A stretch of 64,000 nt of DNA from positions 3,035-67,034 of the forward strand of contig JAGHAM010000004.1 in assembly GCA_021161465.1 (NCBI GenBank). The letters are read 5' to 3'. Positions 5,030-63,947 of this stretch are shown here, piece by piece. Under the pieces are notes generated by a model. That model was not told where the DNA came from and ran no database searches. It worked only from the letters and a program-made list of their open reading frames with translations. The number at the start of each line of letters is the position of its first letter. Position 1 is the first letter of the stretch. This DNA is from Candidatus Iainarchaeum sp. GTDB lineage: Archaea; B1Sed10-29; WALL01; JAGHAM01. The position numbers and the translations under genes were made by a program.

Positions 5030-6610
5030 ATGAAAAAACTTTTGACTCTCTCAATACTAACATTGTTCGCAATTGTTCTTATTGGCTGCGTGGAAGATCA
5101 GGGCCCCGGTCCTGGGTCTACGGGACAGGCGACCTTTGAAGTACTGGTTTCTGATCAGCCTTCAAACATATCTGACTTTGACTTACTTGAAGTAACTCTC
5201 TCGAAAATAAGGGTTTTCAAGTCCGGAGACAACACCGGCTTCGAAGAATTTTCTCCTGCAGTCGAAACATTTGATTTAACTCAGTTGCAGGGAGGCAATG
5301 CTTTAAGTCTTATCAACACAACCCTTCCCCAAGGAAACTACACCAAAATAGAATTTCATGTAACCAACATCACTGGAATCGTTGACAACGAGACCGTGGA
5401 AGTGAAAGTCCCATCAGAGAAACTTATGATAACCCAGGACTTCGAACTAACCGGCAACCAGACAACCTCTTTCGTCTTCGACATGACTGTTATCAAGAAA
5501 GGCACCGGTGACTACAATCTGCTCCCAGTAATCTCGGAGAGCGGCGTGGTCGGAAAGCAGGTTCAGAATGTCAAGAGAGTTAAAGCAACTGAAATGATTC
5601 AGAAGATGCAGGAAAAGAGAGAGAAACACGGACTGGCAAAGCAGAAGGAAAAACCGGAGACCCCAGGTAAAAATGAAACAACTCCCCCTGAAACTCCCAG
5701 GCCGAAAAAAGGTTCTTTCGAACTCCTGATTTCAGATGAGAACAATGCCATCGGAGAATTCGAGACCCTGACTGTCGACCTGAGTAAAGCCAGGGTTTTC
5801 ATGGCGGGAAACGATGATTCAGGAAACCAGACCAACACCAATGGAACCGGAGTTAACGGTAGCCAAAACAACAAGACTGGTGGACAGGGCTTCTCTGAAA
5901 TCGCTCTTGATGTTACAAGTCTTGATCTGACCACTCTCCAGGGCGACAACGCCCTCAGCGTTCTCAACACCACCCTAGAGACAGGAAAGTACACTAAAAT
6001 GGCACTCTATGTGGACAGCGCCTCTGGAACGGTCGACAACGAGACGGTAGATGTTAAAGTACCATCCGGAAAGCTTATGATAACTAAGAACTTCGAGGTA
6101 ATGGAGGGGGAGACAACCTCTTTCGTCTTCGACATAACGGTTATCAAGAAAGGTAACGGAGACTACAACCTCCTTCCAGTAATCTCAAAGAGTGGAGTCC
6201 TTGGAAAAGACGTTATGAGCGTTAATAGGACCAGAATCCGCAATGAGACTGAGGCTGGAAAGCCCAACGAGAAAGGCAACCAAACCCGTAACGAGACCGA
6301 GCAAATGGGCAAGGAAGAACGCTGCACTGAAAGCGGTGGAAATGTTACCACAGCAATGTGCTGCCTCTCATCAGAAGACTTCCCGAACACCTGTGTCATA
6401 GGTGCTTGTGGTTGCTCACCTGAAAACAGCCACGAAGTCGAGTTCTGTGACTGCGGTGAGGAAAAGTGCTTTAACGGTTCAGCGTGTGTGCCAATCGAGA
6501 CGGGCAATCAGACAGAACCCGGAAACGAAACTGTTCCCCCAGGCAACCAAACTGAATCAGGAAACGATACCGAACCGGGCAACCAGACCAATGGTAATCA
6601 GACTGCCTGA
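5030..6610 (+). CDS. secreted lipoprotein with tandem ~200-aa duplicated domain, Cys-rich module and NxT-rich tail
   Basis: Signal peptide plus lipobox-like 'LIGC'. Two internally repeated segments ('...TSFVFDMTVIKKGTGDYNLLPVISESGV' / '...TSFVFDITVIKKGNGDYNLLPVISKSGV'). C-terminal CxxC-rich block, then 'GNQTEPGNETVPPGNQTESGNDTEPGNQT' repeats. Confidence 0.6.
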   Translation: MKKLLTLSILTLFAIVLIGCVEDQGPGPGSTGQATFEVLVSDQPSNISDFDLLEVTLSKIRVFKSGDNTGFEEFSPAVETFDLTQLQGGNALSLINTTLPQGNYTKIEFHVTNITGIVDNETVEVKVPSEKLMITQDFELTGNQTTSFVFDMTVIKKGTGDYNLLPVISESGVVGKQVQNVKRVKATEMIQKMQEKREKHGLAKQKEKPETPGKNETTPPETPRPKKGSFELLISDENNAIGEFETLTVDLSKARVFMAGNDDSGNQTNTNGTGVNGSQNNKTGGQGFSEIALDVTSLDLTTLQGDNALSVLNTTLETGKYTKMALYVDSASGTVDNETVDVKVPSGKLMITKNFEVMEGETTSFVFDITVIKKGNGDYNLLPVISKSGVLGKDVMSVNRTRIRNETEAGKPNEKGNQTRNETEQMGKEERCTESGGNVTTAMCCLSSEDFPNTCVIGACGCSPENSHEVEFCDCGEEKCFNGSACVPIETGNQTEPGNETVPPGNQTESGNDTEPGNQTNGNQTA

Positions 6611-12896: not shown

Positions 12897-15587
12897 ATGC
12901 CAAAAAACAAGAAGGATGTCATGGAACTTCTTAGAAAGAAACCAGACGAGTACTGGAAAGTGGACCTATTCGAAGAAAGGGGATTTAAGCGCCAGAAATG
13001 CCCTTCCTGTGGGACCTACTTCTGGAGCATTAACGAGAGGGAGAACTGCAGCAGCCCGCCGTGTGGAGACTACGAGTTCATAGGAAAGCCGCCAACCAAA
13101 AAGAGCTTCGACCTGATTAAGGCTTGGCGCGCGATAGAAAAATTCTTCGTCAAGAATGGCCATACCTCAATAAACCGTTATCCGATAATATGCAGATGGT
13201 TTCCCGGACTTTTCTTCACTGTGGCAAGTATAGTTGATTTCCAGCGCTCTGTTGGCGGGAAGCCAGTTTTTGAGTTTCCAGTTGACCCATTGGTCGTTCC
13301 TCAACCGTGCCTGCGTTTTAATGACATACCAAACATAGGCGTGTCCGGAAGGCATATGAGCAGCTTTACCATGGTTGGACAGCATACAAAGAAATACTGG
13401 AAGGACAGGTGCATTGAGCTCGACTATGAACTAATGACCAAAGTTTTTGGAATCCCAGAAGACAAAATTGTCTTCACTGAGGACATCTGGGTTGGACCAA
13501 GCGCATTTGGGTCATCACTGGAGTATCTGGTGGACGGTCTTGAGCTGGGCACGTCAGTATTTACATCGTTTTGGGGGACTCCTGATAATTTCAAGCCAAT
13601 GGATGAGAAAGTGATTGACATGGGTGCAGGCCTGGAGCGGTTTACCTGGATTTCACAAGGTACCCCAACTATATATGATGCTTCATACGGGCCCGTGATA
13701 GCAAAGCTGAAGAAGACTGTAGACTACGACAAAGAGCTTTTTACCAGGTATTCAAGGTTAAGCGGCAGGATAGATGCAGATAAGATGAACCCGCGGAAGG
13801 CATTTGAGGGGGTTGCAGGCAAGCTTGGTGTTTCAGTAAAAGAATTAGAGACGAGCATAGGACCACTACAGGCTGTGTATGCAATAACAGACCATGCTAA
13901 GGCGCTAACGTTTGCCATAGCGGATTCTGGGTTGCCGAGCAATGTTGGCGGTGGCTATAACCTTCGTGTCCTCTTAAGAAGAGCCTTGAACCTGATAAGC
14001 AAATATAATTTGGATTTCACGCTGAATGATGTTTGTGAGAAACATGCTAAATACCTAAAGCCGGTGTATCCATCCCTTGCAGAGAACCTTGATGAAATAA
14101 ATGAAATCCTTGATGTCGAGAAGAAGAAGTATGAAAGGTCTCTTGACAGGGCCAGGCGGGTCGCAAGGACGATAGTGTCTAAGTCAAGAAAAGTCCCCAA
14201 GGACAGGATGATACAGCTTTATGAGTCTCAGGGGGTCACTCCTGAGTTGCTGAAACAGGTTGCTGAGAGTGAAGGGAAGGACATAGAAATAGCTGAGGAC
14301 TTTTATTCAAGCTTGACTGCAAAACATTCGAAGGATGCTAGCGCTGAGTTCGTTGAGGTCGATGCTCCAAAGACTGTGAACCTGTATTATAGCCAGCCAG
14401 AGGCAAAGGAGTTTACTGCTAAGGTCTTGAAGAATTTCAAATACCAGGGCAAAAACTGGGTCATACTGGACAGGACATTATTCTATGCTGAGAAGGGTGG
14501 CCAGGACCATGACACTGGCTGGCTTGATGGGAAAAGAGTCATAGATGTTCAGGATATTGGTGGGGTTGTTCTTCACCAAGCTGAACCATTACCGGAAGGA
14601 AAAACTGTCAAGGGCCAAATAGATTGGGATAGGCGTATTATCCTTAGAAACCATCACTCTGCAACACACATAATCAACGGTGCGTGCCGCCGTGTGCTTG
14701 GTAACCATATCTGGCAGGCTGGTGCGTGGAAGGGGATAGACAAGGCCCATCTTGATATAACCCACTATGAGAACCTCTCACAGGAGCAGATAGACAGGAT
14801 TGAGAAGCTGGCGAATAAAGTAGTGCAGGAGAATAGACCTGTGACACAGAATCTAATGCCAAGGACAGAGGCTGAGAGCAAATATGGGTTTAGGCTTTAT
14901 CAGGGAGGAGCTGTACCTGCTGCAGAGCTTTACATAGTTGAGGTTAAGGACTGGGATGTTGAAGCTTGTGGGGGGACTCATGTCAGCAGGACCGGCGTTA
15001 TAAAGAAAATAGTGATTTCAGGAACAGAGAAAATCCAGGATGGCATTGTAAGGGTTCATTTCCTAGCTGGTGAACCAGCTTTGGAGTATCTAAAGAAAAT
15101 GGATTCTCTGCTTAAGGAAACTGCAGGCCTGCTTGGTGTTAAGGAGAGTAAAGTTCCAGAATCAGTTAAAAAGCTGTTGAGCAAGTGGAAGTCAAAGCGT
15201 AAGGAGTTTGAGAGGTTTTTGAAGAAGACGGCAGAGGAGAAGTCAAATGATATAAATCCAATTGAGTTAGATGGAGTCAAGGCGTATGTTTCTGTTGTTG
15301 AAGGGGTAGACATGCTTGGTTTAAGGGAGGTCTCCAAAAAGTTAGGCAACGATGACTCGTTTGTTTTCCTTGTAAGCGACAGGGGTTTTGTATTTGCAGC
15401 TGCTGGAAAGAATGTTATAGAGAGAGGCATAAATGCGGGGAAGATTGTTAGGGAAATAACTGGTTCCTATGGAGGAGGGGGTGGAGGACCACCCGAGAAA
15501 GGGGAAGGTATGATAAAGGATAGCACCTCTTTGGAGCAGTTGGTTGATGATGTAAAGGGTAAGCTTAGGAGGGCTTTGAATGGTTAG
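12897..15587 (+). CDS. alaS: alanyl-tRNA synthetase (archaeal type)
   Basis: 896 aa. Archaeal AlaRS N-terminal catalytic region, editing domain HxxxH/CxxxH ('HHSATHIINGACRRVLG', 'ACGGTHV'), and C-terminal DHHA1-like 'GGGGGGP' region. Confidence 0.9.
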   Translation: MPKNKKDVMELLRKKPDEYWKVDLFEERGFKRQKCPSCGTYFWSINERENCSSPPCGDYEFIGKPPTKKSFDLIKAWRAIEKFFVKNGHTSINRYPIICRWFPGLFFTVASIVDFQRSVGGKPVFEFPVDPLVVPQPCLRFNDIPNIGVSGRHMSSFTMVGQHTKKYWKDRCIELDYELMTKVFGIPEDKIVFTEDIWVGPSAFGSSLEYLVDGLELGTSVFTSFWGTPDNFKPMDEKVIDMGAGLERFTWISQGTPTIYDASYGPVIAKLKKTVDYDKELFTRYSRLSGRIDADKMNPRKAFEGVAGKLGVSVKELETSIGPLQAVYAITDHAKALTFAIADSGLPSNVGGGYNLRVLLRRALNLISKYNLDFTLNDVCEKHAKYLKPVYPSLAENLDEINEILDVEKKKYERSLDRARRVARTIVSKSRKVPKDRMIQLYESQGVTPELLKQVAESEGKDIEIAEDFYSSLTAKHSKDASAEFVEVDAPKTVNLYYSQPEAKEFTAKVLKNFKYQGKNWVILDRTLFYAEKGGQDHDTGWLDGKRVIDVQDIGGVVLHQAEPLPEGKTVKGQIDWDRRIILRNHHSATHIINGACRRVLGNHIWQAGAWKGIDKAHLDITHYENLSQEQIDRIEKLANKVVQENRPVTQNLMPRTEAESKYGFRLYQGGAVPAAELYIVEVKDWDVEACGGTHVSRTGVIKKIVISGTEKIQDGIVRVHFLAGEPALEYLKKMDSLLKETAGLLGVKESKVPESVKKLLSKWKSKRKEFERFLKKTAEEKSNDINPIELDGVKAYVSVVEGVDMLGLREVSKKLGNDDSFVFLVSDRGFVFAAAGKNVIERGINAGKIVREITGSYGGGGGGPPEKGEGMIKDSTSLEQLVDDVKGKLRRALNG

Positions 15588-15773: not shown

Positions 15774-18230
15774 TTGATGAAACACAAGATACTTTTTGGT
15801 ATCCTCATAGGACTATCAATCATGTTTTTGGTTGGTTGTGTTGGAGAACAAGGCGCTCCGAGTCACCAGAGCTTGGAGGTTTCTGTTTATGATTCCAACT
15901 CAAGTTCCCCTCTTGCTGGGACTCCTGTCATTCTTTATAATTCCTCCAACAAGGTGATTGCCACTAGTGTTACAGATTCTAGTGGCCATGCCTCGTTCGA
16001 TGTTTCTCCTGGCGACTATTATATCAAAGTAAATACAACAGGGTTCAATGAGAAGAGAAAAAGCGTTTCTATTGGCCCTATAGAAACCACCGTTGTTGAT
16101 GTGGGTGTCAGGAAACTTGGTGAATGCCTCGAGAAGTGGTCTTGCACTGACTGGGGCCCATGCACTAACGGGAAACAAACTCGTATGTGTATGGATGTCA
16201 ACGACTGTAATACAACATATAATAAGCCATCTGAGGAGCAGGCATGCAATTCTTTGGAGTGCTCTGCAAATTCAGAGTGTGATGATGATAACCCGTGCAC
16301 AACTGATAGCTGTACAGATGGCAAGTGTATCTACTCCCCCATAAAGTCATGCACCAGTGGTGATGGTTGTTGCCCATTTGGTTGTTCATATAACAACGAT
16401 AAGGATTGCCCAGAAGCTGACCAGTGTTCAACCAATACAGACTGCAACGACAATAACCCTTGCACTTTTGACAGTTGTGCTGGCTCACCAAAGGTTTGCA
16501 TTCATTCAACCATAATAAGTTGTTCTGACAACGATGATTGTTGCCCATCTGGCTGTAGTTATGTGGATGACAACGATTGCATGCCTGTTGATAAGTGTAA
16601 GCTCGATTCTGACTGCGATGATAATAATGCATGCACAGTGGACACCTGTTCAGGTATCCCAAAGGTTTGCCGTCATTCAACATTAACAGCATGTATTTCT
16701 GGTGATGGTTGTTGCCCAAGCGGTTGTAACCCGGCTGATGACGCTGACTGCAGGGAATGTGAGACAGACGGGAACTGCGATGATGGTAATCCCTGCACTA
16801 ACGACACCTGTGTATCCTGGGTCTGCGAGCACACAGTTTCTAGTGAGGGTTTATCGTGTGGTGAAGGGAAAGTTTGTTGTGGAGGAGAATGCAGGAGGGC
16901 ATGCTCTTCTGCCCAGGATTGTGCTGACTGGTTCGAGGATAACAATGAAAGCTTTGACTCCAACTGTACTGAATTCTCCTGTACCGACCCCGGCAACTGC
17001 TGTTATGCTAATTGCATTATAAGTGTTTCCCCGTGTGGTCCAGAGGACGGATGTTGTCCTTCTAACTGCAATTCTGAGGAGGACCCTGATTGTGAGACTT
17101 GTACTGATGAGTGCGATACTGAAGGCACGACCCAATGCAACGGTAACACCTTGGAGTCCTGCGGTAACTGTGATGGAGATTCCTGCCTTGAATGGTGCAA
17201 TCCTGACGACTGCAGTGACTGCTCCTGCGATTGCGGTAATTACTCCTCTGACCAGGATGAATCAGCGGTAAACTGCAGTGATGGAATAGACAATGACTGT
17301 GATGGCCTAATAGACTGTGATGACGTTGATTGTGTTTCTTATTGCGGTGAGTGTGAGCCTGGAGAAACCAAGGTTTGTGATAACCAGGAGGGAGTTTGTA
17401 AGGGTTCGGAGCAAACCTGCACTCATGAAGGAGACTGGCCCGGCTGTGTCTACACGTCAATTAATGGTTATGAGTCAGCAGAAGCCACCTGTGATGATGG
17501 GCTGGACAATGACTGTGATGGCCTGACTGACTGCGACGACCCTGACTGCAGTAATTCACCGGAATGCCAGGAGGACAGTTCTGTCAACTTTAAGGCGCGT
17601 TGCATAATGACTTATCCACCGGCGGGAGGTAATCAGTGTGATTTCTACTTTGACAATGTTGGAGAAGGTCATGTGCTCGAACCCTTCAAAGTAGATATGA
17701 AGACCAATGGAACTGCCAGACCATGGGGCCTAGGTAGTATTACTGTTAATCTGAAAGATGAAACCGGAGCCGGATGGACAAAACTCTTGAGATTGCCCTT
17801 AAACTCTTCTTACTGGACTGCTGAGGGAATATGCAGCAAAAACTCAGGCATAGAAAAAGTCGCGAAATGTGATTCGAGTGGTGAAGTACTGGAGGAACAT
17901 GTGTGCGGAGAAGGAAACGACTTTTCGGTTGGAATGGAAGACTATTTGAAGATAAAGCTTTCTGTTGACAGCCTAACGCTTTCCATTGAGGACGGTCTGA
18001 TGTATGAGTATGGTGGTTTCTTTGCTGGAGGGTCACAGTCCTTAGATGCTGAGATGGTTATACCAGGTAATTCTTATGTCATGGTAACTTGCGACTGGTT
18101 GGACACAGGCGAACTTCCATTGCTCTTGGAGATGGTTGTGGACCCTGATAACAGAATTTTGGAATCGGATGAAAGTGATAATGTCGATTCACTCTTCTTG
18201 ACAAGCGTAGGACAGACAAATTGCTTTTGA
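15774..18230 (+). CDS. large secreted lipobox protein: Ig-like/CarboxypepD_reg-like N-domain, ~6 Myxococcus-type Cys-rich repeats, MopE-like DNDCDG motifs, CARDB-like C-terminus
   Basis: Signal peptide 'LVGC'. Repeated 'CxDDNPCTxDxCxxGxCxH...CxSGDGCCPxGC...DxDC' modules. 'CSDGIDNDCDGLIDCDD' and 'CDDGLDNDCDGLTDCDD'. C-terminal '...VDPDNRILESDESDN' CARDB-like ending. Real start likely ATG 15777. Confidence 0.7.
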   Translation: MMKHKILFGILIGLSIMFLVGCVGEQGAPSHQSLEVSVYDSNSSSPLAGTPVILYNSSNKVIATSVTDSSGHASFDVSPGDYYIKVNTTGFNEKRKSVSIGPIETTVVDVGVRKLGECLEKWSCTDWGPCTNGKQTRMCMDVNDCNTTYNKPSEEQACNSLECSANSECDDDNPCTTDSCTDGKCIYSPIKSCTSGDGCCPFGCSYNNDKDCPEADQCSTNTDCNDNNPCTFDSCAGSPKVCIHSTIISCSDNDDCCPSGCSYVDDNDCMPVDKCKLDSDCDDNNACTVDTCSGIPKVCRHSTLTACISGDGCCPSGCNPADDADCRECETDGNCDDGNPCTNDTCVSWVCEHTVSSEGLSCGEGKVCCGGECRRACSSAQDCADWFEDNNESFDSNCTEFSCTDPGNCCYANCIISVSPCGPEDGCCPSNCNSEEDPDCETCTDECDTEGTTQCNGNTLESCGNCDGDSCLEWCNPDDCSDCSCDCGNYSSDQDESAVNCSDGIDNDCDGLIDCDDVDCVSYCGECEPGETKVCDNQEGVCKGSEQTCTHEGDWPGCVYTSINGYESAEATCDDGLDNDCDGLTDCDDPDCSNSPECQEDSSVNFKARCIMTYPPAGGNQCDFYFDNVGEGHVLEPFKVDMKTNGTARPWGLGSITVNLKDETGAGWTKLLRLPLNSSYWTAEGICSKNSGIEKVAKCDSSGEVLEEHVCGEGNDFSVGMEDYLKIKLSVDSLTLSIEDGLMYEYGGFFAGGSQSLDAEMVIPGNSYVMVTCDWLDTGELPLLLEMVVDPDNRILESDESDNVDSLFLTSVGQTNCF

Positions 18231-18243
18231 TACCAACTAAACT

Positions 18244-18251
18244 TTTAAATA
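18244..18251 (+). promoter_or_regulatory. TATA-box-like element upstream of leuS
   Basis: TTTAAATA about 38 nt upstream of the probable ATG at 18290. Confidence 0.3.
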
Positions 18252-18280
18252 AACTCCCACACTAATAAAAGGAAATCTAA

Positions 18281-21115
18281 GTGTTATCTATGCCAGCCTA
18301 CAAACACGAAAAGGTAGAGTTAAAATGGCAGAAAGAATGGGAAAACGCCGGGCTTAGCCAAGCCGATGCAGATCCAGAGAGAGAAAAGTACTTCTTGATA
18401 TTTGCCTATCCAGGAATCTCGGGCTTCCTTCATGTTGGCCATATGCGAGGCTACTCCTATTCTGACATCATCACTAGGTACAAGCGAATGCGCGGATTCA
18501 ACGTGCTCTTCCCAGCTGGCTTTCACGCCACTGGTATTCACGCTGTGGCGATAGCCGAGAAAATCAAGCGTGGCGATAAAAAATTAATCCAATATTTCAA
18601 GGACAATGGGGTTTCTGATAAGCAGATAGAGAAGTTCAAGGATTACAATGAGGTTGTAAAGTTTTTCTCAAAGGTTTACGTTGACGAGTACTGGAAACGC
18701 TTTGGGTTTCTCATAGACTGGAGGAGGCTTACGAGTACACTGCACCCAGGCTACCATAAGTTCATCCAGTGGCAGTTCAGGAAGCTGATGCAGCAGGGCT
18801 TACTAGTGCAGAAGGAGTACTATGGAGCTTTCTGTCCTCATTGTGGGCCGGTGGCAGTTGATGCAACTGAGACAGACTTGCAGAGGGGCGGAAATGCAGA
18901 GAAACTAGAGTTCACATTGTTGAAGTTCAAGTACGGAGATTCTTACCTAGTGGCTGCAACCTTAAGGCCTGAAACCATCTATGGCCAGACTAACATGTGG
19001 GTAAGGCCGGATATCAACTACGTGAAAGTTGAGGTAGATGGGGAGAAATGGATAGTTAGTGAGGAATGTTCTAAGGCTTTAACCGAGCAGGGAAAGAAAG
19101 TAAAGGTTCTGGAGGAAGTGCCTGGAAAAAGCATGATAGGAAAATACTGCCACGCGCCTGGCATAGATGGGGATATAATCATATTACCTTCTGATTTCCC
19201 CGACCCAAAGATAGGGACGGGCCTTGTTACTAGTGTACCTTCTGATGCACCTTACGATTACATCGCCTTGAAGGACCTACAGGGAAATCCAGGAGAGTGC
19301 AGAAAGTATGGGATTGACCCAGAGAAGGTTAAGGCGATAAAGCTGATACCAATAATCAAGTCCAAGGGCTATGGAGAATTCCCCGCAGAGGAAATTGTTG
19401 AGAGGATGGGTATAAAGAGCCAGCGCGAGACTGAGAAATTAGAGGAGGCTACCAAGGAGATATACAAATTGGGCTACCACACAGGGGTAATGCGCGAGAA
19501 CTGTGGGCCTTACGCAGGTATGCGAGTTGAAGAAGCCAAGGATGCTATGAAGGAGGACCTAATCAAGAAAGGTCTTGCCGACGTGTTCTATGCTTTCTCT
19601 GAGCCCGTGGTGTGCAGGTGTGGGAGAGATGTCGTCATAAGGAAGATAACTGACCAGTGGTTCATAAAATACAGTGATGAGTCTTTAACGGAGAAGTCAA
19701 AGCTGCATGCTGAAGGCATGAACATCTTCCCGGAGGATTACAAGAGGGAGATACCTGCGGTTCTGGATTGGTTCCAGGATAGGCCTTGTGTCAGACAGGG
19801 CTCTTGGCTCGGGACAAAGTTCCCATTCGATGAGAAATGGATTATAGAACCTATTTCAGACTCGACACTTTATCCAGCTTATTATGTTGTTTCTATCTAT
19901 GAGAACAATGGAGTAATCAAGCCAGAGGAGATGACCGAGGAATTCTTCGATTATGTTTTCTTGGGGAAAGGGGAACCAAAGAAACCAATCTGGAAGAGGA
20001 TAAGGGAGGATTTTGAATACTGGTACCCTCTTGATGTAAATTTGGGCGGCAAGGAGCACAAAACCGTTCACTTCCCTGCTTTCCTTATGAACCATGTTGC
20101 TATCCTACCTGGAACCTACTGGCCGAGGGGAATATTCGTGAACTGGTGGGTTTTGGGAAAGGCCGGTTCTAAAATAAGTAAGAGCAAGGGCGGGGCCGAG
20201 GCAATACCCGATATACTTGAAACTTACTCAGCTGACTCTATCAGGCTTTACTATTCTCATGTGGCTTCTCCGTTCCAGGACATCTATTGGGATGCTGACA
20301 CAGCCTTCAAGTACAAGAATGCTCTGGAACGTGCCTATGTAATATGTGAAACCCTCTCTGGACTGAAAGGCGGGAAATCAAGAATAGATAGCTGGCTGGA
20401 ATACAATTTCAATGAAAGCCTGAGGGAAGCAACTGACGCTATGGAGAACTATGACCTGAGAGTCGCCTCCGATGTAATTTTTTATGCCATACCGCGTATC
20501 CTCAACTGGTACCAGAGGAGAGGGGGAGAAAACACTAAGATGCTATCTTGGGTGTTGAGGGATTGGGTCAGATTGATGACTCCCTTCACCCCTCACCTTG
20601 CTGAGGAGATATGGCACTCGGTGCTTGGTGAGAAGAACCTAGTTTCGGTTGAGTCCTGGCCAAAAGCACGCGAGGTAGAAGCTGATGAGAGAGTGAATGA
20701 AGAAGAGGAGCTGCTTAGGGATATCCTAAGCGATACGCGTGATATATTCAAGCTGGTTGGTGGGAAGCCTTCAAAAGTTTTCATCTACACACCAGCTAAA
20801 TGGAAGTGGCAGGTTATTGGGAAGGTTAGGGGTAAAGAACGCGACTTCAAAGCATGCATACAGGCGGTAGCGGCTGACCAGGAGCTAAAGAAGGATGGGC
20901 CACGATTCATTAAGGCGATATTCAAGAAACTTCCTGGCTATTCGAGCAAACCCCAGATAGATGAGTATGATGGCCTAAAGAGCGCTGAGCTATTCCTCTC
21001 CGAGGAGCTTGGAGTTCCTGTAAAGGTTTTCAGAGAGGAGGACCCCAAGAAATACGACCCTACTGGGAAAGCATCTAAAGCGCTACCACTTTACCCTGCA
21101 ATATATGTAGAATAA
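18281..21115 (+). CDS. leuS: leucyl-tRNA synthetase (archaeal/eukaryal type)
   Basis: 944 aa. HIGH motif 'HVGHMRGY', KMSKS motif 'KISKSKG', CP1 editing insertion. Probable true start ATG at 18290. Confidence 0.9.
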   Translation: MLSMPAYKHEKVELKWQKEWENAGLSQADADPEREKYFLIFAYPGISGFLHVGHMRGYSYSDIITRYKRMRGFNVLFPAGFHATGIHAVAIAEKIKRGDKKLIQYFKDNGVSDKQIEKFKDYNEVVKFFSKVYVDEYWKRFGFLIDWRRLTSTLHPGYHKFIQWQFRKLMQQGLLVQKEYYGAFCPHCGPVAVDATETDLQRGGNAEKLEFTLLKFKYGDSYLVAATLRPETIYGQTNMWVRPDINYVKVEVDGEKWIVSEECSKALTEQGKKVKVLEEVPGKSMIGKYCHAPGIDGDIIILPSDFPDPKIGTGLVTSVPSDAPYDYIALKDLQGNPGECRKYGIDPEKVKAIKLIPIIKSKGYGEFPAEEIVERMGIKSQRETEKLEEATKEIYKLGYHTGVMRENCGPYAGMRVEEAKDAMKEDLIKKGLADVFYAFSEPVVCRCGRDVVIRKITDQWFIKYSDESLTEKSKLHAEGMNIFPEDYKREIPAVLDWFQDRPCVRQGSWLGTKFPFDEKWIIEPISDSTLYPAYYVVSIYENNGVIKPEEMTEEFFDYVFLGKGEPKKPIWKRIREDFEYWYPLDVNLGGKEHKTVHFPAFLMNHVAILPGTYWPRGIFVNWWVLGKAGSKISKSKGGAEAIPDILETYSADSIRLYYSHVASPFQDIYWDADTAFKYKNALERAYVICETLSGLKGGKSRIDSWLEYNFNESLREATDAMENYDLRVASDVIFYAIPRILNWYQRRGGENTKMLSWVLRDWVRLMTPFTPHLAEEIWHSVLGEKNLVSVESWPKAREVEADERVNEEEELLRDILSDTRDIFKLVGGKPSKVFIYTPAKWKWQVIGKVRGKERDFKACIQAVAADQELKKDGPRFIKAIFKKLPGYSSKPQIDEYDGLKSAELFLSEELGVPVKVFREEDPKKYDPTGKASKALPLYPAIYVE

Positions 21116-21138
21116 GATTGCCTAGAGTATACTAGCTA

Positions 21139-22326
21139 TCAGCGCGTTCGCTTTCTTTTTGGTTTAGCTATCTTAGCAAGGCGCTTTGCTAGGAGTTTTG
21201 TTTCACCGCTATATAATATATCTGAGGCACGGGTGGTTAGGTCCCTTAGCTCTTTTGTCCTTCCTGTTCTACCACCGCGGAATATCTCATGGACTACTCT
21301 ATCTAGTTCTCTCATTTCTGTGGTGCTTTTTGGCAACTTAAGTCCGGTTTTCTCCTCGATTTCTCTTGCCTGTCCACCAGCTATCTTCTTGCCAAGGACA
21401 TCTGTTAGCCCTCTTTTATACAGCCTTCTCACAGCGCTGAACATCTGTGGCCGTGTGCTTTTGGTTGCTATATATGTTGGTTCTTTGTGGCTGTCCAGCC
21501 TGGAGTTCATATTGTTTATCGCGTTTCTCATAGCCTCTATATCAATCATTTCAGATGGCGTTAGCAGTTTGTCCCTGTGCTTCTCAAGTATCTTCCTGGC
21601 TTCATTGATGTCTTTCCCATCAAGGTTTTGGAGGTACCCACTGTGGGAGGTTATCTTTCTCAGTTTTTTCATTTCGGTCTCTGATAAAACTATACCTTCT
21701 GTTTTCCTTGGTTTTCTGCGTGGTTTCCCTTGTGCTTTCTTCTTGCTTGGTTTCTTTCTGCTCGGCTTCTTAGTGCTTTTGGTTTTCTTCTTTTTAGGTT
21801 TTGAAACCTTAGGGGTTGGTTCAGGGGTGGCTAGTTGTTCCTTCTCTTTGAGTTTTTCTTCCAACTCTCTTATCTTATTAGTGAGGCTTTCTCTCTCCCT
21901 TTCGTGCTCTTCCATAAGTTCAGTCAGGCGTCTTTCTGCAAGTTTCATGATGGTTTCATTTTTAAGTTTGTCATGTCCCCTGTCAAGCATCCATCCCCAT
22001 GCAAACTGGCCTATTTTCTTCTCTTTTCCGGTTTGCAGCTGGTAGGCACGCTGGTCTTCTTCAGTCCTTATCCTGCTGAAAATGGGCCTATGGCTCCTGA
22101 AATAAGTTATGCCCTCTTCCGTTATCACTTCGCGCTCGTGTGGCCGCAGCACCTTGGCCATTACCCTTCCCCAAATATCTTTTCCAGAAACACGCTTAGC
22201 TCTTTTTTCAATGATTCTTGACATCCTTCTTTCAGGACTGAAAAATGAATATTTCTTTTTAATGATTTTACTATGCTCTCTAGCCTTGCCGGCATCATAT
22301 AATTCTATCTCCCCAGACCTTGCCAT
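21139..22326 (-). CDS. hypothetical protein with Lys-rich linker and helix-hairpin-helix-like C-terminal region
   Basis: Low-complexity 'KPKKKKTKSTKKPSRKKPSKKK' linker and 'LTDVLGKKIAGGQAREIEEKTG' HhH-like segment. Function not assignable. Confidence 0.4.
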   Translation of the reverse strand: MARSGEIELYDAGKAREHSKIIKKKYSFFSPERRMSRIIEKRAKRVSGKDIWGRVMAKVLRPHEREVITEEGITYFRSHRPIFSRIRTEEDQRAYQLQTGKEKKIGQFAWGWMLDRGHDKLKNETIMKLAERRLTELMEEHERERESLTNKIRELEEKLKEKEQLATPEPTPKVSKPKKKKTKSTKKPSRKKPSKKKAQGKPRRKPRKTEGIVLSETEMKKLRKITSHSGYLQNLDGKDINEARKILEKHRDKLLTPSEMIDIEAMRNAINNMNSRLDSHKEPTYIATKSTRPQMFSAVRRLYKRGLTDVLGKKIAGGQAREIEEKTGLKLPKSTTEMRELDRVVHEIFRGGRTGRTKELRDLTTRASDILYSGETKLLAKRLAKIAKPKRKRTR

Positions 22327-22329
22327 CTT

Positions 22330-23064
22330 CTAGGACCTCCTCCTGGTAGTTAAGAGCTCTCTTGGTATCGGCTCTACCATATACTCGCTTAATTTTTTCA
22401 ACTTGGCAAAGCTTTGAATCTCTCTTGGTATGTCCGCCTCTGGGAACTTAGTATAGAGTTGTTTCATAAACTCAGCGGATATGAACCCTTTTGATATCCA
22501 TTCTTCCTTGATGGTTTTTTGTATTGGAGTTTCAATTGGTGTTACAACTTTAAGTGATGGGCTCACAGGCTTGTCAGACGCGCTCTCAATCTTTTTCAGG
22601 GCTTTGTCTATCGTGTAATTGAATACAACTGTAGAATACTCATTGCTTATTGAAATTCCCCAGAGTTTTGAAATCTCGGGTGCCAGCCTTTCCTTTACGT
22701 TCTTTGGTAGCTCTTCAAATTTTTCTCTAATACTTATGAATTCTGGTTCATTGAATTCTTCCGGGTGCAATCCCTTAAGCTTCTTGAGAGCCATATAATA
22801 CTCTGCTGTGGATTTCCCACTTTCTAACTTTTTCGCGTATTCCAGATACTCAGAACGATTCTTTATGTTTTTTATAACATCACTAACGCTAACTCCTCTT
22901 CTTACTATTGGCGGGATGAACCGAAAATCTTCTTTTGTTATGGCTTCCTGTGGTTTCAATGATTTGTAGCTTCTGATGGCCCTAGCTGCCATCAACCTAT
23001 TGTCTAATTCGCTAATTTTCTCATCAAGCTCAACAAGCTTTGCATGGAGGTTATCCTTTTTCAT
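22330..23064 (-). CDS. hypothetical protein (244 aa)
   Basis: ORF 4 nt downstream of 21139..22326 on the same strand (likely operon). Confidence 0.4.
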   Translation of the reverse strand: MKKDNLHAKLVELDEKISELDNRLMAARAIRSYKSLKPQEAITKEDFRFIPPIVRRGVSVSDVIKNIKNRSEYLEYAKKLESGKSTAEYYMALKKLKGLHPEEFNEPEFISIREKFEELPKNVKERLAPEISKLWGISISNEYSTVVFNYTIDKALKKIESASDKPVSPSLKVVTPIETPIQKTIKEEWISKGFISAEFMKQLYTKFPEADIPREIQSFAKLKKLSEYMVEPIPRELLTTRRRS

Positions 23065-23288
23065 TTAAATCCCTTAACTCGGTATGCATTATTAAATATA
23101 CACGTTCTCATTTAAATATCTTTGCAATAATATTACATATGTATTCTTCCATTCTCCTATGCCATACTAAATCAGTCTGCCCGTCTGTCATCACAGCGTT
23201 AGCTCAGAACTCATAGGGCTCATCATCTGATGTTGATTGTCCCATAATTGGAATAAAAGGCTTCTGGTGATGTATCAGTTATTGACAA

Positions 23289-23837
23289 TCAATCCTTCCT
23301 ATGCTGTGTCTTCATCCCTCTGGTCCTGAAGAATCCTTTGTCATAAACTTTGCCATACTTTTCGTAAATTTGTTTTCCGCCATCTCTAAGCCAACCACCA
23401 CTAATCGGTAGCCCGTGTTTCTTGGCAGCATACCTAAGAAGTTTGGCTGCGAGGAACAGTGGCTTCTCCCTTTTCTTCTTGTATACACCTTCTTCAGTAA
23501 CATGACCACTGATAATTTTTGTATCTCTGAATTTTGGCCTGACGAATATTTCATGAACGAATAGTGTTTTACCTGCATTGCGGTTGATATCTTTTTTAGC
23601 GATGGGCTTGACTGTTATGAACCCTGAATACTCTCCCTTTGTTCTTTGCAGATAAGTAAAAATTTCGCCTTTGGTTTGAGATTCAGTTTTATTCTTAAGC
23701 CAGCCTTCCACTGCTTTTCTTGTAGTTGCATATCCTTTGTTTTCAACCCATTCCCGGCGCATCTTCTTTAGGGTTTCAATGTGTTCTGCATCTTCAGGAT
23801 CGAACAAGATATGCTCTACTTTACCTTTTCCACCCAT
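23289..23837 (-). CDS. conserved hypothetical protein, paralog of 32514..33077 (possible degenerate GNAT-like fold)
   Basis: Shares 'EYSGFITVKP', 'FVHEIFVRPKFR', 'LAAKLLRYAAKKHG.P..G.WL' and 'EKYG..Y..GFFR.RGMK..HRK' blocks with the 32514 protein. Confidence 0.5.
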   Translation of the reverse strand: MGGKGKVEHILFDPEDAEHIETLKKMRREWVENKGYATTRKAVEGWLKNKTESQTKGEIFTYLQRTKGEYSGFITVKPIAKKDINRNAGKTLFVHEIFVRPKFRDTKIISGHVTEEGVYKKKREKPLFLAAKLLRYAAKKHGLPISGGWLRDGGKQIYEKYGKVYDKGFFRTRGMKTQHRKD

Positions 23838-23871
23838 CTATATGCTTTATGAAGCAATGATATAAAATTGG

Positions 23872-24567
23872 TTACTCTGTTTTTCCAAAATCTGTTTTCA
23901 TCAGCTCATTTTTTGGTTTTCCCATTGCAATCATCCCAGCCAACACTGCAATCAACCCACCTTCTATCACACTAGCTACTAGTACGCCAAGTGCAAGACC
24001 AACTAGCCATCCAAGGAAACCTAGGATACCTGCATCCAATCCGAAGGAGTTAACAACAGCGCTAAAAGCTTTCCCTAAAGCCCTTCCTAGTTTATCAATT
24101 GAAAATCCACTGTATTGGAAAAACGTGTGGATGGCATTTATGAAGACAAAAATTATACTAAGCGCCTTACTAATCAAACCAATTATGAGTCCGAACAGAG
24201 AACCTGCAAAAAATGCTTGCTTGAGCGTTTCTCCATAATTTTTTACTGTGGTCCATCCTATCCAAAGCGTCAGCACCATGCACATGCTAGTGTAAAACCC
24301 AAGAGCTGAGCTACCTAACCAATCTCCTTGGAATATCGAGACACCTTCTCTCCACCCGCTGACTGGGACCACCAAGTTAACTACTCCCATAAAGATTGCA
24401 AAAGTTGCCCAAACAACAACTAAGAGCAAGGGAAGTTTCATTCTTCCGAATAGCTTGCCTATGTTTCCAGAGGATTTCTTAGGTTGAGTAGGGACATTGG
24501 GAGCAGTCTCTGTAACCATGACCTGAGGTTTTTTTATTTCAGTTTCTCCAACCATTACATTCACCAA
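23872..24567 (-). CDS. integral membrane protein, hypothetical
   Basis: Five or six hydrophobic helices. Co-directional with, and 35 nt upstream of, the 23289 gene. Confidence 0.5.
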   Translation of the reverse strand: MVNVMVGETEIKKPQVMVTETAPNVPTQPKKSSGNIGKLFGRMKLPLLLVVVWATFAIFMGVVNLVVPVSGWREGVSIFQGDWLGSSALGFYTSMCMVLTLWIGWTTVKNYGETLKQAFFAGSLFGLIIGLISKALSIIFVFINAIHTFFQYSGFSIDKLGRALGKAFSAVVNSFGLDAGILGFLGWLVGLALGVLVASVIEGGLIAVLAGMIAMGKPKNELMKTDFGKTE

Positions 24568-24665
24568 CTAACTAAAAACCAAGCTAATTTTTAAATTTTT
24601 TGGGTCATAGCCAAGGCAACTGTGAGATTCTTAACGTTATCTTTTTAAATTCAAAATACGTTTAG

Positions 24666-27644
24666 GTGATTATGATAACCCGAAATCTATGTGTTTTGCT
24701 GTTTTTCACCACTCTTTTGCTCTTTGTAGGATGTCTTGAGCCTCAGGAAACTGATAAAAATGTTCAGTTTTTAGTTTATGATACAACTCCAAGCAACGTT
24801 CTTGAGGGAGCTTCAATAACCATTTCAAATAGTTCTGGTGTATTTACCTCTCTCACAACAGATACATCTGGGGTTGTTTTTCTCCGACTTCCTCCAGGTG
24901 AGTACAGAGCCGAAGTTTCAAAGGAAGGATATCAAGGAAGACAGTTTAAATTCACAGTTTCTGGAAATACTTTCGTTACCTTGGATGCACCATTAGAAAG
25001 GATGAAACCATGTGTTGAAAACTGGTCCTGCTCAGAGTGGAGTTTATGTATCAATGGGACTCAAACTAGGAGTTGTATAGACAGTAATCACTGCAATACA
25101 ACTGAGAATAAGACTATTGAAGAGCAATCATGCACTCCACCTGAGTGCCAGATAAATTCTGACTGCAATGACAGTAATCCATGCACTACTGACTCTTGTG
25201 TAGATGGAACTTGCAAGCATGAAACGATAACCAAGTGTAAGTCCGGAGACAAATGCTGTCCAAGTGGGTGCACTCATGATAAAGACAGTGATTGCCTACA
25301 ATTAGTTCGATGCAACTCTACGTCTGACTGTGACGATGGAGATTCGTGTACACTTGACATTTGCTCAGGGAATCCAAGAGCATGTTCACATGTGAAGGTA
25401 ACTGCCTGTTCTGACAATGATGGTTGTTGTCCAGCGGGGTGTACTTACAAGGCCGATGATGATTGTGAACCAGTGGACGAATGTCAAACAGATGCTGACT
25501 GTGATGATAGCATACCCTGTACAAAGGATACTTGTTCAGGCGCTCCAAAAACATGTTCTCATGCCATGGTTACTCAATGCGTAGACAATGACAGTTGCTG
25601 CCCTGAGGGTTGTAGTTATCTCAACGACACAGATTGTCCTGAAACAGATGAGTGCTCAACGGATTCTGACTGTGATGATGGTGTGAACTGTACTCTAGAT
25701 ACATGTTCTGGAACTCCAAAGGCATGCCACCACACTCACATCACTACTTGTCAGTCTGGCGATGGCTGCTGCCCAGAAGGGTGCAACTATCTCAACGATA
25801 CGGACTGTCCAAATCTTGACCAGTGCTTAACCAATGCTGATTGCGATGACAACAACGTTTGCACTATGGATGTATGTAATGGAACTCCAAAGATGTGTTA
25901 CAACCTTCCTATTACTGAATGTCGGGATAATGATGGCTGTTGTCCATCTGGGTGTTCGTATGTGACCGATAACGATTGTAGTCAACAGGAGGTCACGGAG
26001 ACGCTTTATGTGGGAGACTTTGCTGTTGTTGGAGGCCTACCCATTTACCTACAATCAGTAACAAGATCATATATGCCCGGTGTGATTGGTAGTGCAACCA
26101 TGCTGGTTGGTGGGAAGAAACTTTCACTTAATGATGGTGATGCATTCCCTGGGGATGAGAACTGGAAAGTTAAAGTGACTACCGGTGCAACAGGCCAATG
26201 CCCGTCAGGTATGACCTGCAGCAATGGCTACATAGACTACATAACTCTGTACTATGATAAAACCCTCCAGCCATCGGATAAGGTAACAAAGATTGTTGGT
26301 CCAAATCCAAATCATTATTTCGAGTTGTCCTATGATGGTGATGAAGTTTCAAGAGGTGTATGGGACTCTGAAAGTGTGAGTTTGAAAGCAATGAACTATG
26401 GGTGCTTAGACAAACTTACATACACAGATGGAACGTATGAAAAGGCTTATGCGGTCGACATGAACTCCAATGATGGTCTTACCACAGCATTCCTTGCTGA
26501 TGGAAACGGCGGTGTTAGTGATGGTTCTAACCCACTAGATTTGCAAGAAGGAGATATCTTCTTCGTGGAGAACACGCCTGTTTATATAAACTCAATAGCT
26601 ATGTCTACTTCCCCATACAACTCCAAGGTAACCTTTACGGTCGGCTACGGAGCAACTGACGGCAAGACCTCTACCAAAGATGTTACTGGCGATGGGTGTA
26701 CAACTTCTGGTGGATGGGTATACTGTACCCCAACAATACTGGCGACGACCGTTGGCTTGAACTGGACCTTTAACATTTCGCAGTACTCTGAACCCATCCT
26801 CCATGTCCTAAGCGGAGCAGACAACGTACTCAACACAAAGTATGGTTCTTTGACTTGGCAGTCCGATAATCATGTCTTGTTTTCCAGCATGACTTTTAAG
26901 GATTCTTATAACCAAGAGTTCCTCGTTAAGCGACCGAGCTGTATGAGTACAGGATTGAAAGTTACAGATACGAGCGAAACTATGATATATGTTGACCAAT
27001 CTGGCACACATCCAGAATATGAATACAATAAATTCCATGAAACAGCTGGGGCTTGGATCGAGTCTGTAGATGATGACACGATAAAATTCGTTAATCCAGA
27101 ACATGCTCCAAGGACCGAGAGAGTTACGCTGTGTAAATTGGAGAGTGGCTCCTCTGGTTGCGAAATTAAAGATTTAGATTGGAATTATGGCATTACTCCC
27201 TCAAACAAGTTAGTCATTGACCACGATCAGGGTTTAGTTTTATCATCTTTCCCGTACAACGGTTCTGATTATGACTACAGCGAAACAGTCGTTGCGGGCG
27301 ATTCAACGATTCCCCTCTACTATGAGGAAGGAACCGATTTCCATGGTGTTTACTTCTCTGATCTCAAACCACAGAAGTATTATTATCGATTAGATTTCCT
27401 GGATAACTTCCCCATTGGTTTGGAGGCACATTCGCCAGAATTAAAATTTTTAGGTAGTGATTATACACTAACCAAAGTTGGTTCGACGGAGGTTGATCTA
27501 GTGGATGGTGCTAACTTGCTTTTGGGTGTTGGCTCTTGTCAGGATGTACCTTATCAAGGGCATACCTACAATCTATGTGTGATTAGTATAGGGTTTAATG
27601 ATGAAACTGAAACTGGATTTGCATCTATACGAGTTATTCAATAA
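24666..27644 (+). CDS. large secreted lipobox Cys-rich repeat protein (paralog of 15774..18230) with ~560-aa unique C-terminal domain
   Basis: Same architecture as 15774: signal 'FVGC', CarboxypepD_reg-like domain, 'ENWSCSEWSLCINGTQTRSC' module, six 'CxDxxxCTxDxCxGxxxxCxH...DGCCPxGC' repeats, then a large beta-rich domain. Confidence 0.7.
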   Translation: MIMITRNLCVLLFFTTLLLFVGCLEPQETDKNVQFLVYDTTPSNVLEGASITISNSSGVFTSLTTDTSGVVFLRLPPGEYRAEVSKEGYQGRQFKFTVSGNTFVTLDAPLERMKPCVENWSCSEWSLCINGTQTRSCIDSNHCNTTENKTIEEQSCTPPECQINSDCNDSNPCTTDSCVDGTCKHETITKCKSGDKCCPSGCTHDKDSDCLQLVRCNSTSDCDDGDSCTLDICSGNPRACSHVKVTACSDNDGCCPAGCTYKADDDCEPVDECQTDADCDDSIPCTKDTCSGAPKTCSHAMVTQCVDNDSCCPEGCSYLNDTDCPETDECSTDSDCDDGVNCTLDTCSGTPKACHHTHITTCQSGDGCCPEGCNYLNDTDCPNLDQCLTNADCDDNNVCTMDVCNGTPKMCYNLPITECRDNDGCCPSGCSYVTDNDCSQQEVTETLYVGDFAVVGGLPIYLQSVTRSYMPGVIGSATMLVGGKKLSLNDGDAFPGDENWKVKVTTGATGQCPSGMTCSNGYIDYITLYYDKTLQPSDKVTKIVGPNPNHYFELSYDGDEVSRGVWDSESVSLKAMNYGCLDKLTYTDGTYEKAYAVDMNSNDGLTTAFLADGNGGVSDGSNPLDLQEGDIFFVENTPVYINSIAMSTSPYNSKVTFTVGYGATDGKTSTKDVTGDGCTTSGGWVYCTPTILATTVGLNWTFNISQYSEPILHVLSGADNVLNTKYGSLTWQSDNHVLFSSMTFKDSYNQEFLVKRPSCMSTGLKVTDTSETMIYVDQSGTHPEYEYNKFHETAGAWIESVDDDTIKFVNPEHAPRTERVTLCKLESGSSGCEIKDLDWNYGITPSNKLVIDHDQGLVLSSFPYNGSDYDYSETVVAGDSTIPLYYEEGTDFHGVYFSDLKPQKYYYRLDFLDNFPIGLEAHSPELKFLGSDYTLTKVGSTEVDLVDGANLLLGVGSCQDVPYQGHTYNLCVISIGFNDETETGFASIRVIQ

Positions 27645-62426: not shown

Positions 62427-63947
62427 TTATTTAGCTGTTTTCTTGTTTAAATCTTTTTTGTTTTTGCTATGGTGTTTTTTATGCTTCTTCTTGTAGTAAA
62501 AGAACAGTATCACAACTACAATCAACAGTATCACACCAACAACTATCAAAGCAATCACAACCCCAGCTATCAGTCCAAATTCACCTAGTATTGGATGGGC
62601 TTCTCCTTCTGTTTTGAAACCTATATAGAAGGTTGTGCTGTTCTCGCTGTCTGCCCGGTAAACACGCAATGAACCCTTAACTGGCTTGAAGGCCATAGTT
62701 TCATTTGAGATGGCTACCTTACGACTATTAAACTTGTAGTCATCTTCACATTCGGGTGTGTTTGCACTGCAGAACACGAAAGAGCTGTTTTCAGGTAGCC
62801 AGTCAATTCCCTGGACGTTTATCTGGTCTTTTATGTCACCCAAAGTTAAGGAGCCTTCCGTTGTGAAGTCGAGGTTTGCTGAAGCTGGCTCTCCGGGAAG
62901 GCTTTGATTCAACAAAGAGAGTATCGCTGAGAGTGTTGAGTTTTCATCAGGGGACAAAATTCTATAAAGCTTGCAATTGTCAGAGCAGGCAGTTAAGTTA
63001 TCTGTACCATTCTCCTTGTCACATTCTTCTCCATCAACAACAAGCCCATCTCCACATATTGGCACGAGAGAGTTGCAGTCCTTACATTCAAATCCGGGTG
63101 TGTAATTCTGTGATGCACTGGTTTGCTTCGTGTCGCATAACTCACCCTCAACAACAAGCCCATCTCCACATATTGGTGTCATGTTCATACAATCGCTGGA
63201 GCATTTGAAGCCTTTGGTTACATTGCTCTTATCACACACTTCGTCACCAGCTATTATACTATCCCCACAGGTAGTTTCAAGCTTGCAGTCTGATGTGCAA
63301 TTGTAGCCATATGGCACGTCTTTATCACCATCACACTCTTCCCCATTTTCTTTGTCTACTTTACCATTCCCACAATAAGGGGGCACCTCAAGGTAGGCTT
63401 TTGTGCTCATGTCATAAACCTTGTCTAGAGGCATCTTGGTTATTGTCTCTCCATTTATTGTTATGTCCTTTATCTCCCATGTATACTCTCTGTCTCCTAT
63501 TGTATCCGCACCCATAAACACTATGGTTAAGTTGTCAAAGAGGCACTCTGTTGACTTTATGTCCATTTTAATGGTTTTCCACTCATTGTTTTTGAAGGCC
63601 TCCTCTTTCGGGTCGCCATTGGTGTAACTATCTACTGCTGGTCCGTCTGCAATCCTCCCTGGCAATAGCAAGTTTTGTGAACCCGAACTACAAAATACTC
63701 CATAGGCCTCCTGTGTGCTGCCAAGCCAGTTGCACTCAAAGTGAACATGGCATAGGTGACTTTGTGAGGGGTAGGGGAGAAATGAAAAAGTGTTGGTTAT
63801 GAAACCCGGCTTTTCAACCGTTGCATTTTCATATCCATAGATAAATCCAAAGAAGTTTGGCCCATCGTTGTTTTCACCTTCACCAGTCTTCACAGCCAGT
63901 GCATGGTTGTCGAAGTCCAAATCTATATTTGGGGCATTTACCCTCAC
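62427..63947 (-). CDS. secreted Cys-rich Myxococcus-repeat protein with C-terminal TM anchor
   Basis: Repeats 'PICGDGLVVEGELCD', 'PICGDGLVVDGEECD', 'CGNGKVDKENGEECD', 'TCGDSIIAGDEVCD'. C-terminal 'GVVIALIVVGVILLIVVVILFFYYKKKHKKHH'. The 5' end lies near the window edge. Confidence 0.65.
   Translation of the reverse strand: MRVNAPNIDLDFDNHALAVKTGEGENNDGPNFFGFIYGYENATVEKPGFITNTFSFLPYPSQSHLCHVHFECNWLGSTQEAYGVFCSSGSQNLLLPGRIADGPAVDSYTNGDPKEEAFKNNEWKTIKMDIKSTECLFDNLTIVFMGADTIGDREYTWEIKDITINGETITKMPLDKVYDMSTKAYLEVPPYCGNGKVDKENGEECDGDKDVPYGYNCTSDCKLETTCGDSIIAGDEVCDKSNVTKGFKCSSDCMNMTPICGDGLVVEGELCDTKQTSASQNYTPGFECKDCNSLVPICGDGLVVDGEECDKENGTDNLTACSDNCKLYRILSPDENSTLSAILSLLNQSLPGEPASANLDFTTEGSLTLGDIKDQINVQGIDWLPENSSFVFCSANTPECEDDYKFNSRKVAISNETMAFKPVKGSLRVYRADSENSTTFYIGFKTEGEAHPILGEFGLIAGVVIALIVVGVILLIVVVILFFYYKKKHKKHHSKNKKDLNKKTAK

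Follow-up and report, generated by a model that had tools for sequence, protein, structure and literature searches.

Two lipobox-bearing, cysteine-rich paralogues of a DPANN archaeon share a putative stalk, and one ends in an S-layer-like core in permuted order

A 64-kb stretch of a Candidatus Iainarchaeum sp. contig (JAGHAM010000004.1), referred to here as the window, encodes two giant proteins, A (open reading frame 15774..18230) and B (open reading frame 24666..27644), and the evidence supports both as paralogous, secreted, lipobox-bearing, cysteine-rich surface proteins of a small (DPANN) archaeon. On sequence comparison, the last 550 residues of B are homologous to the central part of a small family of Methanococcales-type S-layer proteins, in circularly permuted form and without the outer domain. 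An earlier note on this DNA had treated this part of B as a divergent C-terminal domain, and so missed the permuted S-layer-protein core. Taken as a whole, the explanation that we favour, to which we give about even chances, is that A and B each carry a head of their own on a lipid-anchored stalk and that the head of B associates with the S-layer of its own cell. The most likely role of B shifts accordingly from that of a generic adhesin to that of an S-layer-associated protein.

The assignment of the head of B was obtained with a family profile hidden Markov model (HMM) of 802 positions built from 14 canonical members, that is, S-layer proteins of the ordinary layout. The profile matched B in two modules, designated Y and X (Table 1), and left its positions 1-108 and 679-802 unmatched, a pattern that was the same in the relative P0010; no match to the profile was found in A. 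BLAST showed the module order in B and P0010 to be Y-X, the reverse of that in P0121 and P0122. The two modules of B are joined by about eight residues where the outer domain would sit, and the N-terminal part of the protein, the proposed stalk, attaches at a site corresponding to an internal junction of the canonical proteins. In an alignment with artificially re-permuted relatives, all 33 invariant columns were retained by B.

The identity of the family itself is drawn from several models. TIGR01564 (S_layer_MJ) was matched by eight of the 15 aligned members, with a best E-value of 5.8e-13, and PF05124 ('S-layer like family, outer domain') by nine, five of them over the cut-off and reaching 43.1 bits. 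In one of the 15, P0125, the stretch where X and Y join scored 27.6 bits with PF05123 ('central region'; cut-off 27), and the family profile matched the PDB chain 9fsa, an 'S-layer protein' (E 1.2e-4). The PF05124 match is split in the canonical members between residues ~30-97 and ~700-813, which indicates that the outer domain is made of both termini and that the central ~600 residues are an insertion. Since the termini of the canonical proteins would then meet, the permutation is topologically simple. Compared with the Methanococcales-type S-layer proteins (TIGR01564; PF05123 plus PF05124), residues 452-991 of B are homologous to the central ~570 positions of a divergent branch, whereas the modules of those proteins are colinear and both PF05124 halves are present. 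A further difference is that in B a lipobox, a beta-sandwich and a cysteine-rich stalk precede the core. Predicted S-layer proteins of DPANN archaea with an MSTP-like beta-sandwich also belong to this type (bioRxiv 10.1101/2024.05.28.596244).

A word-indexed search with residues 441-992 of B, which missed the database entry of B itself, recovered two relatives only; when 1.84 billion cluster representatives were scanned exhaustively with phmmer, the head had 17 matches. The lipobox and cysteine-rich architecture was present in two of the 17 (B itself and P0010). Most of the others are proteins of about 800 residues with a Sec signal and a conserved N-terminus (MKSLNIKKAAAVAAG...QIVVG...DG..AA.LAA.IG). 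The canonical relatives share a conserved C-terminus as well (...GNAIVIGGH.VN.LA...LYVAGYTA.DT..AV..LI.AIKAL) and, on inspection of the alignment, canonical members end in '...LIAAIKAL' without a C-terminal hydrophobic stretch fit for a membrane anchor. The closest matches of the head of B are the own-clade S-layer proteins P0123 and P0121, at 39-41% identity.

Structure prediction of the head with AlphaFold2 depended on how the relatives were aligned. A four-sequence alignment gave a predicted local distance difference test (pLDDT) score of 50.6 and meaningless Foldseek matches. A second run, for which each canonical relative was split into a Y row and an X row aligned to B, gave an all-beta model with a mean pLDDT of 68.7 and values of 87-92 at both ends; such well-scored ends would fit the end-to-end packing expected from permutation. 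Foldseek found nothing in the PDB for this better model at E<=0.001.

The joining of S-layer-core pieces to cysteine-rich repeats is a recurring theme, being found in a second lineage. In the single amplified genome (SAG) AM-311-L14, a 1358-residue open reading frame (locus L006, 3466..7542, JBHOSQ010000007.1) has a class-III/pilin-like N-terminus (MKKAQGSLEYLLILAAILAIGVVV), and its CGNG...EECDDG repeats and Pro/Thr linkers are interspersed with pieces of the S-layer core that map to positions 437-562, 119-220 and 318-375 of the profile. The repeats of this protein are of the true Myxococcus type and its anchor is an N-terminal hydrophobic segment.

One contig of 432,297 bp (ERZ10759834 NODE_8) encodes both P0010, which is of the B type, and the canonical protein P0127. 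Their presence in the same genome indicates that the B-type gene coexists with the canonical gene and does not replace it. The canonical gene lies in a neighbourhood of BofA, MJ0538, the S-layer gene itself, a protein of ~290 residues, TruD and eRF1, and this order is kept in SAG AM-311-L14. The ~290-residue companion is encoded directly downstream of the canonical gene (L007, 6474..7319; L003, 10582..11493), with no Pfam match on record; it is membrane-anchored, through a lipobox (FVGC) in one of the two genomes and through a hydrophobic segment at the N-terminus in the second.

The remainder of B is shared with A. BLASTP aligned residues 20-440 of A with residues 21-438 of B (41% identity, E 1e-93) and left the C-termini unaligned, which bears out the earlier description of the two as paralogues with a common N-terminal part and divergent ends. 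About 12 archaeal proteins show this succession of N-terminal anchor, CarboxypepD_reg domain, WxCxxW module and repeats, the anchor being either a lipobox or an N-terminal transmembrane segment. Signal peptides with a lipobox had been proposed for both A and B, and both were recognised by a PROSITE PS51257-type rule (positive n-region, hydrophobic h-region, [LIVMF..][..][AGS]-C, cysteine at position 15-35) that was passed in the window by six real open reading frames and one spurious antisense one. Euryarchaeota and DPANN have been reported to possess lipobox proteins as well as the lipidation enzyme AliA (arCOG02177), and the lipobox anchor of Haloferax is a thioether-linked archaeol (PMC12462473). 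We infer that A and B are likewise lipid-anchored via the lipobox cysteine.

Behind the signal peptide, the CarboxypepD_reg-like domain of both proteins was confirmed by PF13620 matches over the cut-off. The conserved 'W-S-C-x-x-W...' module that had been pointed out next to this domain proved to be a discrete unit of 41 residues and six cysteines; 16 copies from 14 proteins gave the consensus CxExWxCTEWSxCxxGxxTRxCxDxNxCGTxxxKPxExxxC with nine invariant columns. No Pfam or NCBIfam family was assigned to it and a profile search found nothing relevant among PDB sequences. A reading of the module as a thrombospondin type 1 repeat was tried and rejected, the PF19030 match having an E-value of only 0.83 and the PDB search with the 16 modules returning no such repeat and a 24-residue toxin (E 0.06) as its sole match. 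P0010 has a second copy of the module at residues 359-399 (L004), just before its S-layer-like head, whereas B has the membrane-proximal copy only.

The repeats that follow have the pattern C-x5-C-x5-C-x4-C-x4-6-C-x7-C-x5-CC-x3-C-x7-C, and the ten cysteines of each unit suggest five disulfides. At the DNA level they recur with a period of 171 nt and the copies are 60-73% identical, so the repeats appear to be old. The count of five to six that had been given for each protein holds for B with its five canonical units, but A has three, followed by a variant of ~110 residues that was also seen by inspection in P0009, P0010 and P0017. Their description as Myxococcus-type was not upheld, as scans with TIGR02232 and PF13948 gave no match in either protein, whether it was taken whole (E<=1) or in separate segments (E<=10). 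PF00526 (Dicty_CTDC) matched the isolated repeat segment of A with 38.8 bits (cut-off 27), each match covering profile positions 1-14 of 24; on whole proteins it gave 15.3 bits for B and did not list A. The likeness to the Dictyostelium CTDC repeat concerns the first 14 residues of the 57-residue unit (C-x-D-x-N-x-C-T-x-D-x-C), while the second half (C-x7-C-x5-CCPxGC-x7-C) lies outside PF00526, and the CCPxGC half was found in no curated family. Some of the relatives retrieved have CCPxxC runs but no CTDC-type half, and proteins with the labels Polyangia, Deltaproteobacteria and Pseudomonadota are among them.

The shared N-terminal part may be seen as a disulfide-stiffened stalk that would keep a variable head off the membrane. 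A rigid stalk has been proposed for the cysteine-rich repeats of TraA in Myxococcus xanthus (PMC3325183). TraA resembles A and B in having a lipid or membrane anchor, a stalk of tandem cysteine-rich repeats that is common to paralogues, and a variable distal head. It runs from a PA14 head through the stalk to a MYXO-CTERM anchor, whereas the polarity of A and B is opposite, with the anchor at the N-terminus. TraA further differs in its type of anchor and of head, in its repeat family, which is TIGR04201, and in coming from another domain of life.

The head of A begins with two acidic repeats of the pattern C-x-D-G-x-D-N-D-C-D-G-x-x-D-C-D-D-x-D-C, whose DNA copies (17279-17332 and 17495-17548) are 80% identical. 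The MopE-like DNDCDG motif ascribed to both proteins is thus present twice in A and not in B, and it is recognised by NF033662 rather than by the MopE family PF11617, for which A and B gave no match, not even in separate segments at E<=10. The second copy aligned with the C-rich domain of teneurin-4 (PDB 7PLP) with an E-value of 1.6e-5. The Ca2+ ligands of teneurin are E835, D840, D843, N844, D845, D847, D851, D854 and D856 (PMC9058538), and all eight acidic ligands and Asn844 were aligned in copy 2, together with four of the six teneurin cysteines. Copy 1, judged by inspection without a tool alignment, retains seven of the eight acidic ligands and the Asn. A differs from the teneurin domain in an extra cysteine in place of Gly846 and in the absence of the C858-C869 disulfide. 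If A binds metal, Ca2+ would be a better guess than Cu, probably in structural sites.

Beyond the acidic repeats, the last 219 residues of A yielded no homologue, a weak negative given that the same search also missed the database entry of the query itself. The 'CARDB-like ends' that had been proposed for both proteins are reduced to a match of about 30 positions at the end of A, which falls below the cut-off; the end of B is not CARDB-like. The motif 'VDPDN.I.ES.E.N' is the sole part that the end of A has in common with a CARDB-bearing relative. Of the three families that had been named for an HMM check, TIGR02232 and PF11617 were therefore unmatched and CARDB was sub-threshold, which by the criterion of the earlier note refutes its labelling in part, and labels given by eye to cysteine-rich repeats (Myxococcus-type, MopE) failed against HMMs.

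Put together, these features suggest the following arrangement. A Sec-type signal peptide ending in the lipobox cysteine would lead to attachment of a thioether-linked archaeol and so place each protein on the outer face of the membrane, and the beta-sandwich, the six-cysteine module and four to five 57-residue ten-cysteine repeats would form the stalk. The head of B would dock under the cell's own S-layer or insert into the lattice of the canonical subunit and so fasten the lattice to the membrane, the stalk determining the distance between the two. The same stalk would be a scaffold for other heads such as that of A, which consists of the two acidic double-disulfide repeats, with the teneurin Ca2+ ligands retained, and an orphan domain of ~215 residues. 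Association of B with its own S-layer is the most economical proposal because its head stems from an S-layer protein of its clade, the canonical proteins have no obvious C-terminal anchor, and both gene types occur in one genome. That B associates in this way, as a tether or a minor lattice component, is put forward tentatively, the chances being somewhat below even. The narrower idea that B-type proteins are a previously unrecognised S-layer tether, with a permuted lattice core in or on a lattice of the Methanococcales/DPANN type and a stalk reaching to the membrane, is possible but doubtful.

B is a concrete candidate for the link that holds Methanococcales/DPANN-type S-layer subunits to the membrane; if it acts as one, it would answer, at least in its own lineage, how subunits without an anchor stay on the cell. 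The concept resembles that of SlaB and SlaA in Sulfolobales, in which a membrane-anchored stalk protein sets the distance between lattice and membrane. SlaB has a C-terminal transmembrane helix and a coiled-coil stalk and is not derived from a lattice protein. To our knowledge neither SlaB nor SlaA is related to B in sequence. B is also a natural case of circular permutation plus domain loss in a structural surface protein.

Several observations weigh against the association of B with its own S-layer. Its contact with the S-layer is something that we infer from sequence, and B itself matches none of PF05123, PF05124 and TIGR01564, so that its link to these families is transitive via the canonical members. 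The ~290-residue companion is an equally good candidate for the S-layer anchor; the window has no homologue of it. B-type proteins were found in only two of about 15 family clusters and are accordingly not a general anchor. The canonical S-layer gene is absent from the window, a statement that applies to these 64 kb only. This last absence also speaks for another view, that B is the principal, self-anchored S-layer protein and has replaced the canonical subunit, with A as an unrelated accessory protein reusing the stalk. B does retain the family-invariant residues of the S-layer core, and archaeal S-layer proteins with a lipidation anchor and long stalks exist in other lineages (bioRxiv 10.1101/2024.05.28.596244). 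Replacement is nevertheless quite improbable in our view, given that the other genome with a B-type protein has the canonical gene on the same contig, in the BofA/MJ0538/TruD/eRF1 neighbourhood, that B lacks the PF05124 domain retained by all canonical members, and that the view of the present genome is limited to 64 kb.

A and B might instead be adhesins for a host or partner, as the earlier note suggested, the stalk pushing the heads past the cell's own S-layer so that the head of B binds or intercalates into the S-layer of the partner and the head of A binds another ligand. A DPANN organism with a large surface repertoire (six lipobox open reading frames; 19.7% of the window) and with heads that change while the stalk stays the same, as for the TraA receptor, would suit such a role. 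The identity of A and B to their nearest relatives (P0002 and P0015 in the case of A) is 33-41%, compared with ~67% by tblastx for one housekeeping gene shared with the same relative, a comparison of rates that assumes orthology. The head of B is, however, closest to S-layer proteins of its own clade rather than of any known host group, the organism has no known host, and HMM scans detected no lectin or adhesin domain in A or B; we regard the adhesin role as unlikely. It is very improbable that the proteins bind metal, as MopE binds copper, or act in redox chemistry, with the cysteines as ligands. The cysteine content of A and B and the resemblance of DNDCDG to the motif of PF11617, a family carried by the relative P0018, could be taken that way, but PF11617 matches neither protein, the motif is missing from B, the cysteines are strictly periodic at ten per repeat, as for disulfides, and the acidic motif aligns with a Ca2+-binding and not a Cu-binding domain. 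Of the metal binding proposed earlier, the MopE (copper) kind is unsupported; the acidic repeats of A keep instead the residues that coordinate Ca2+ in the C-rich domain of teneurin-4 (PMC9058538). Association of B with its own S-layer, together with a shared stalk for A and B, remains the explanation that we prefer.

Table 1. Features of A and B, with positions in the window and the basis of each assignment (aa, amino acids; i-E, independent E-value).
Feature	Position	Strand	Basis or remarks
Gene A	15777..18230	+	817 aa from ATG at 15777; 818 aa from TTG at 15774 (open reading frame list)
A, signal peptide with lipobox	15777..15839	+	MKHKILFGILIGLSIMFLVG followed by C (Cys21), ending ...MFLVG before C; recognised by PROSITE-type rule
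A, CarboxypepD_reg (transthyretin-like beta-sandwich), aa 34-110	15873..16103	+	PF13620, 40.1 bits, cut-off 32.3
A, 41-aa six-Cys WxCxxW module, aa 118-158	16125..16247	+	Alignment of copies; 'CxExWxCxxWxxCxxGxxxRxCxDxNxC...C'
A, repeats	16260..17093	+	Three canonical 55-57-aa units (aa 163-328), then ~110-aa variant unit (aa 329-440)
A, two acidic double-disulfide repeats	17253..17582	+	NF033662, 51.1 bits, cut-off 41, 2 stretches
A, orphan C-terminal ~215 aa	17583..18227	+	No homologue found; ends in CARDB-like motif
A, CARDB-like motif, aa 779-804	18108..18185	+	CARDB (PF07705), 16.4-19 bits, cut-off 22.7, profile positions 69-98 only
Gene B	24672..27644	+	990 aa from ATG at 24672; 992 aa from GTG at 24666 (open reading frame list)
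B, signal peptide with lipobox	24672..24734	+	MITRNLCVLLFFTTLLLFVG followed by C, ending ...LLFVG before C; recognised by PROSITE-type rule
B, CarboxypepD_reg, aa 37-110	24774..24995	+	PF13620, 41.4 bits, cut-off 32.3
B, 41-aa six-Cys WxCxxW module, aa 116-156	25011..25133	+	BLASTP and alignment of copies
B, repeats (proposed stalk)	25146..25985	+	Five canonical 55-57-aa ten-Cys units, aa 161-440
B, Y module, aa 452-826	26019..27143	+	Profile positions 284-678, i-E 1.2e-80; also phmmer, BLAST
B, X module, aa 834-991	27165..27638	+	Profile positions 109-267, i-E 9.3e-41

Both giant open reading frames exist in the open reading frame list at the positions given in the earlier note. A is flanked by alaS (12897..15587) and leuS (18281..21115), and contigs of ENA and JGI carry its exact 817-residue product between the same two genes. 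The start of A differs among gene callers: the cluster representative P0001 (JGI/ENA, 802 residues) starts at MFLVGC and so drops the signal peptide, which would mask a lipoprotein prediction, while the calls on the ENA and JGI contigs use the ATG at 15777. The 990-residue product of B is identical to NCBI MCD6414139.1, labelled 'Candidatus Diapherotrites archaeon' and encoded on a 77-kb contig, and the product name there, 'carboxypeptidase regulatory-like domain-containing protein', conceals an S-layer-derived protein.

A wider surface repertoire had been described in the window, said to be secreted, cysteine-rich and dense in sequons and to take up more than 20% of its length. The eight open reading frames listed for it cover 19.7%, slightly less than claimed; six of them have a lipobox and two a C-terminal transmembrane anchor. 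The term cysteine-rich fits A (11.1% Cys) and B (6.9%), but the other listed frames are not strongly so. Sequon density, expressed as a z-score against shuffles of the same composition, is not raised in A and B (0.7 and 1.6) but is high in 5030..6610, 42322..44208 and 62427..63947 (7.5, 7.2 and 4.3). The first of these (+) has a lipobox, 25 sequons, a DUF4382 match (E 3.5e-32) and a tail of the 'PGNQTE' type, and the second (+) has a lipobox, 23 sequons and no family match; it probably begins with the ATG at 42322 and not at 42265. The third (-) encodes 506 residues with three PF13948 (DUF4215) repeats (46.3 bits), a C-terminal transmembrane helix and a basic tail. By its match to this family, it is here, and not in A or B, that the Myxococcus-type repeat of the window is located.

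No tRNA or Rfam feature was found in the whole window. Between leuS and B, four consecutive open reading frames of 395, 244, 182 and 231 residues without a Pfam match occupy 21139..24567 on the reverse (-) strand. The first of this group has a long Lys-rich tract (KPKKKKTKSTKKPSRKKPSKKK...), and the last has, by inspection, the appearance of a multi-pass membrane protein.

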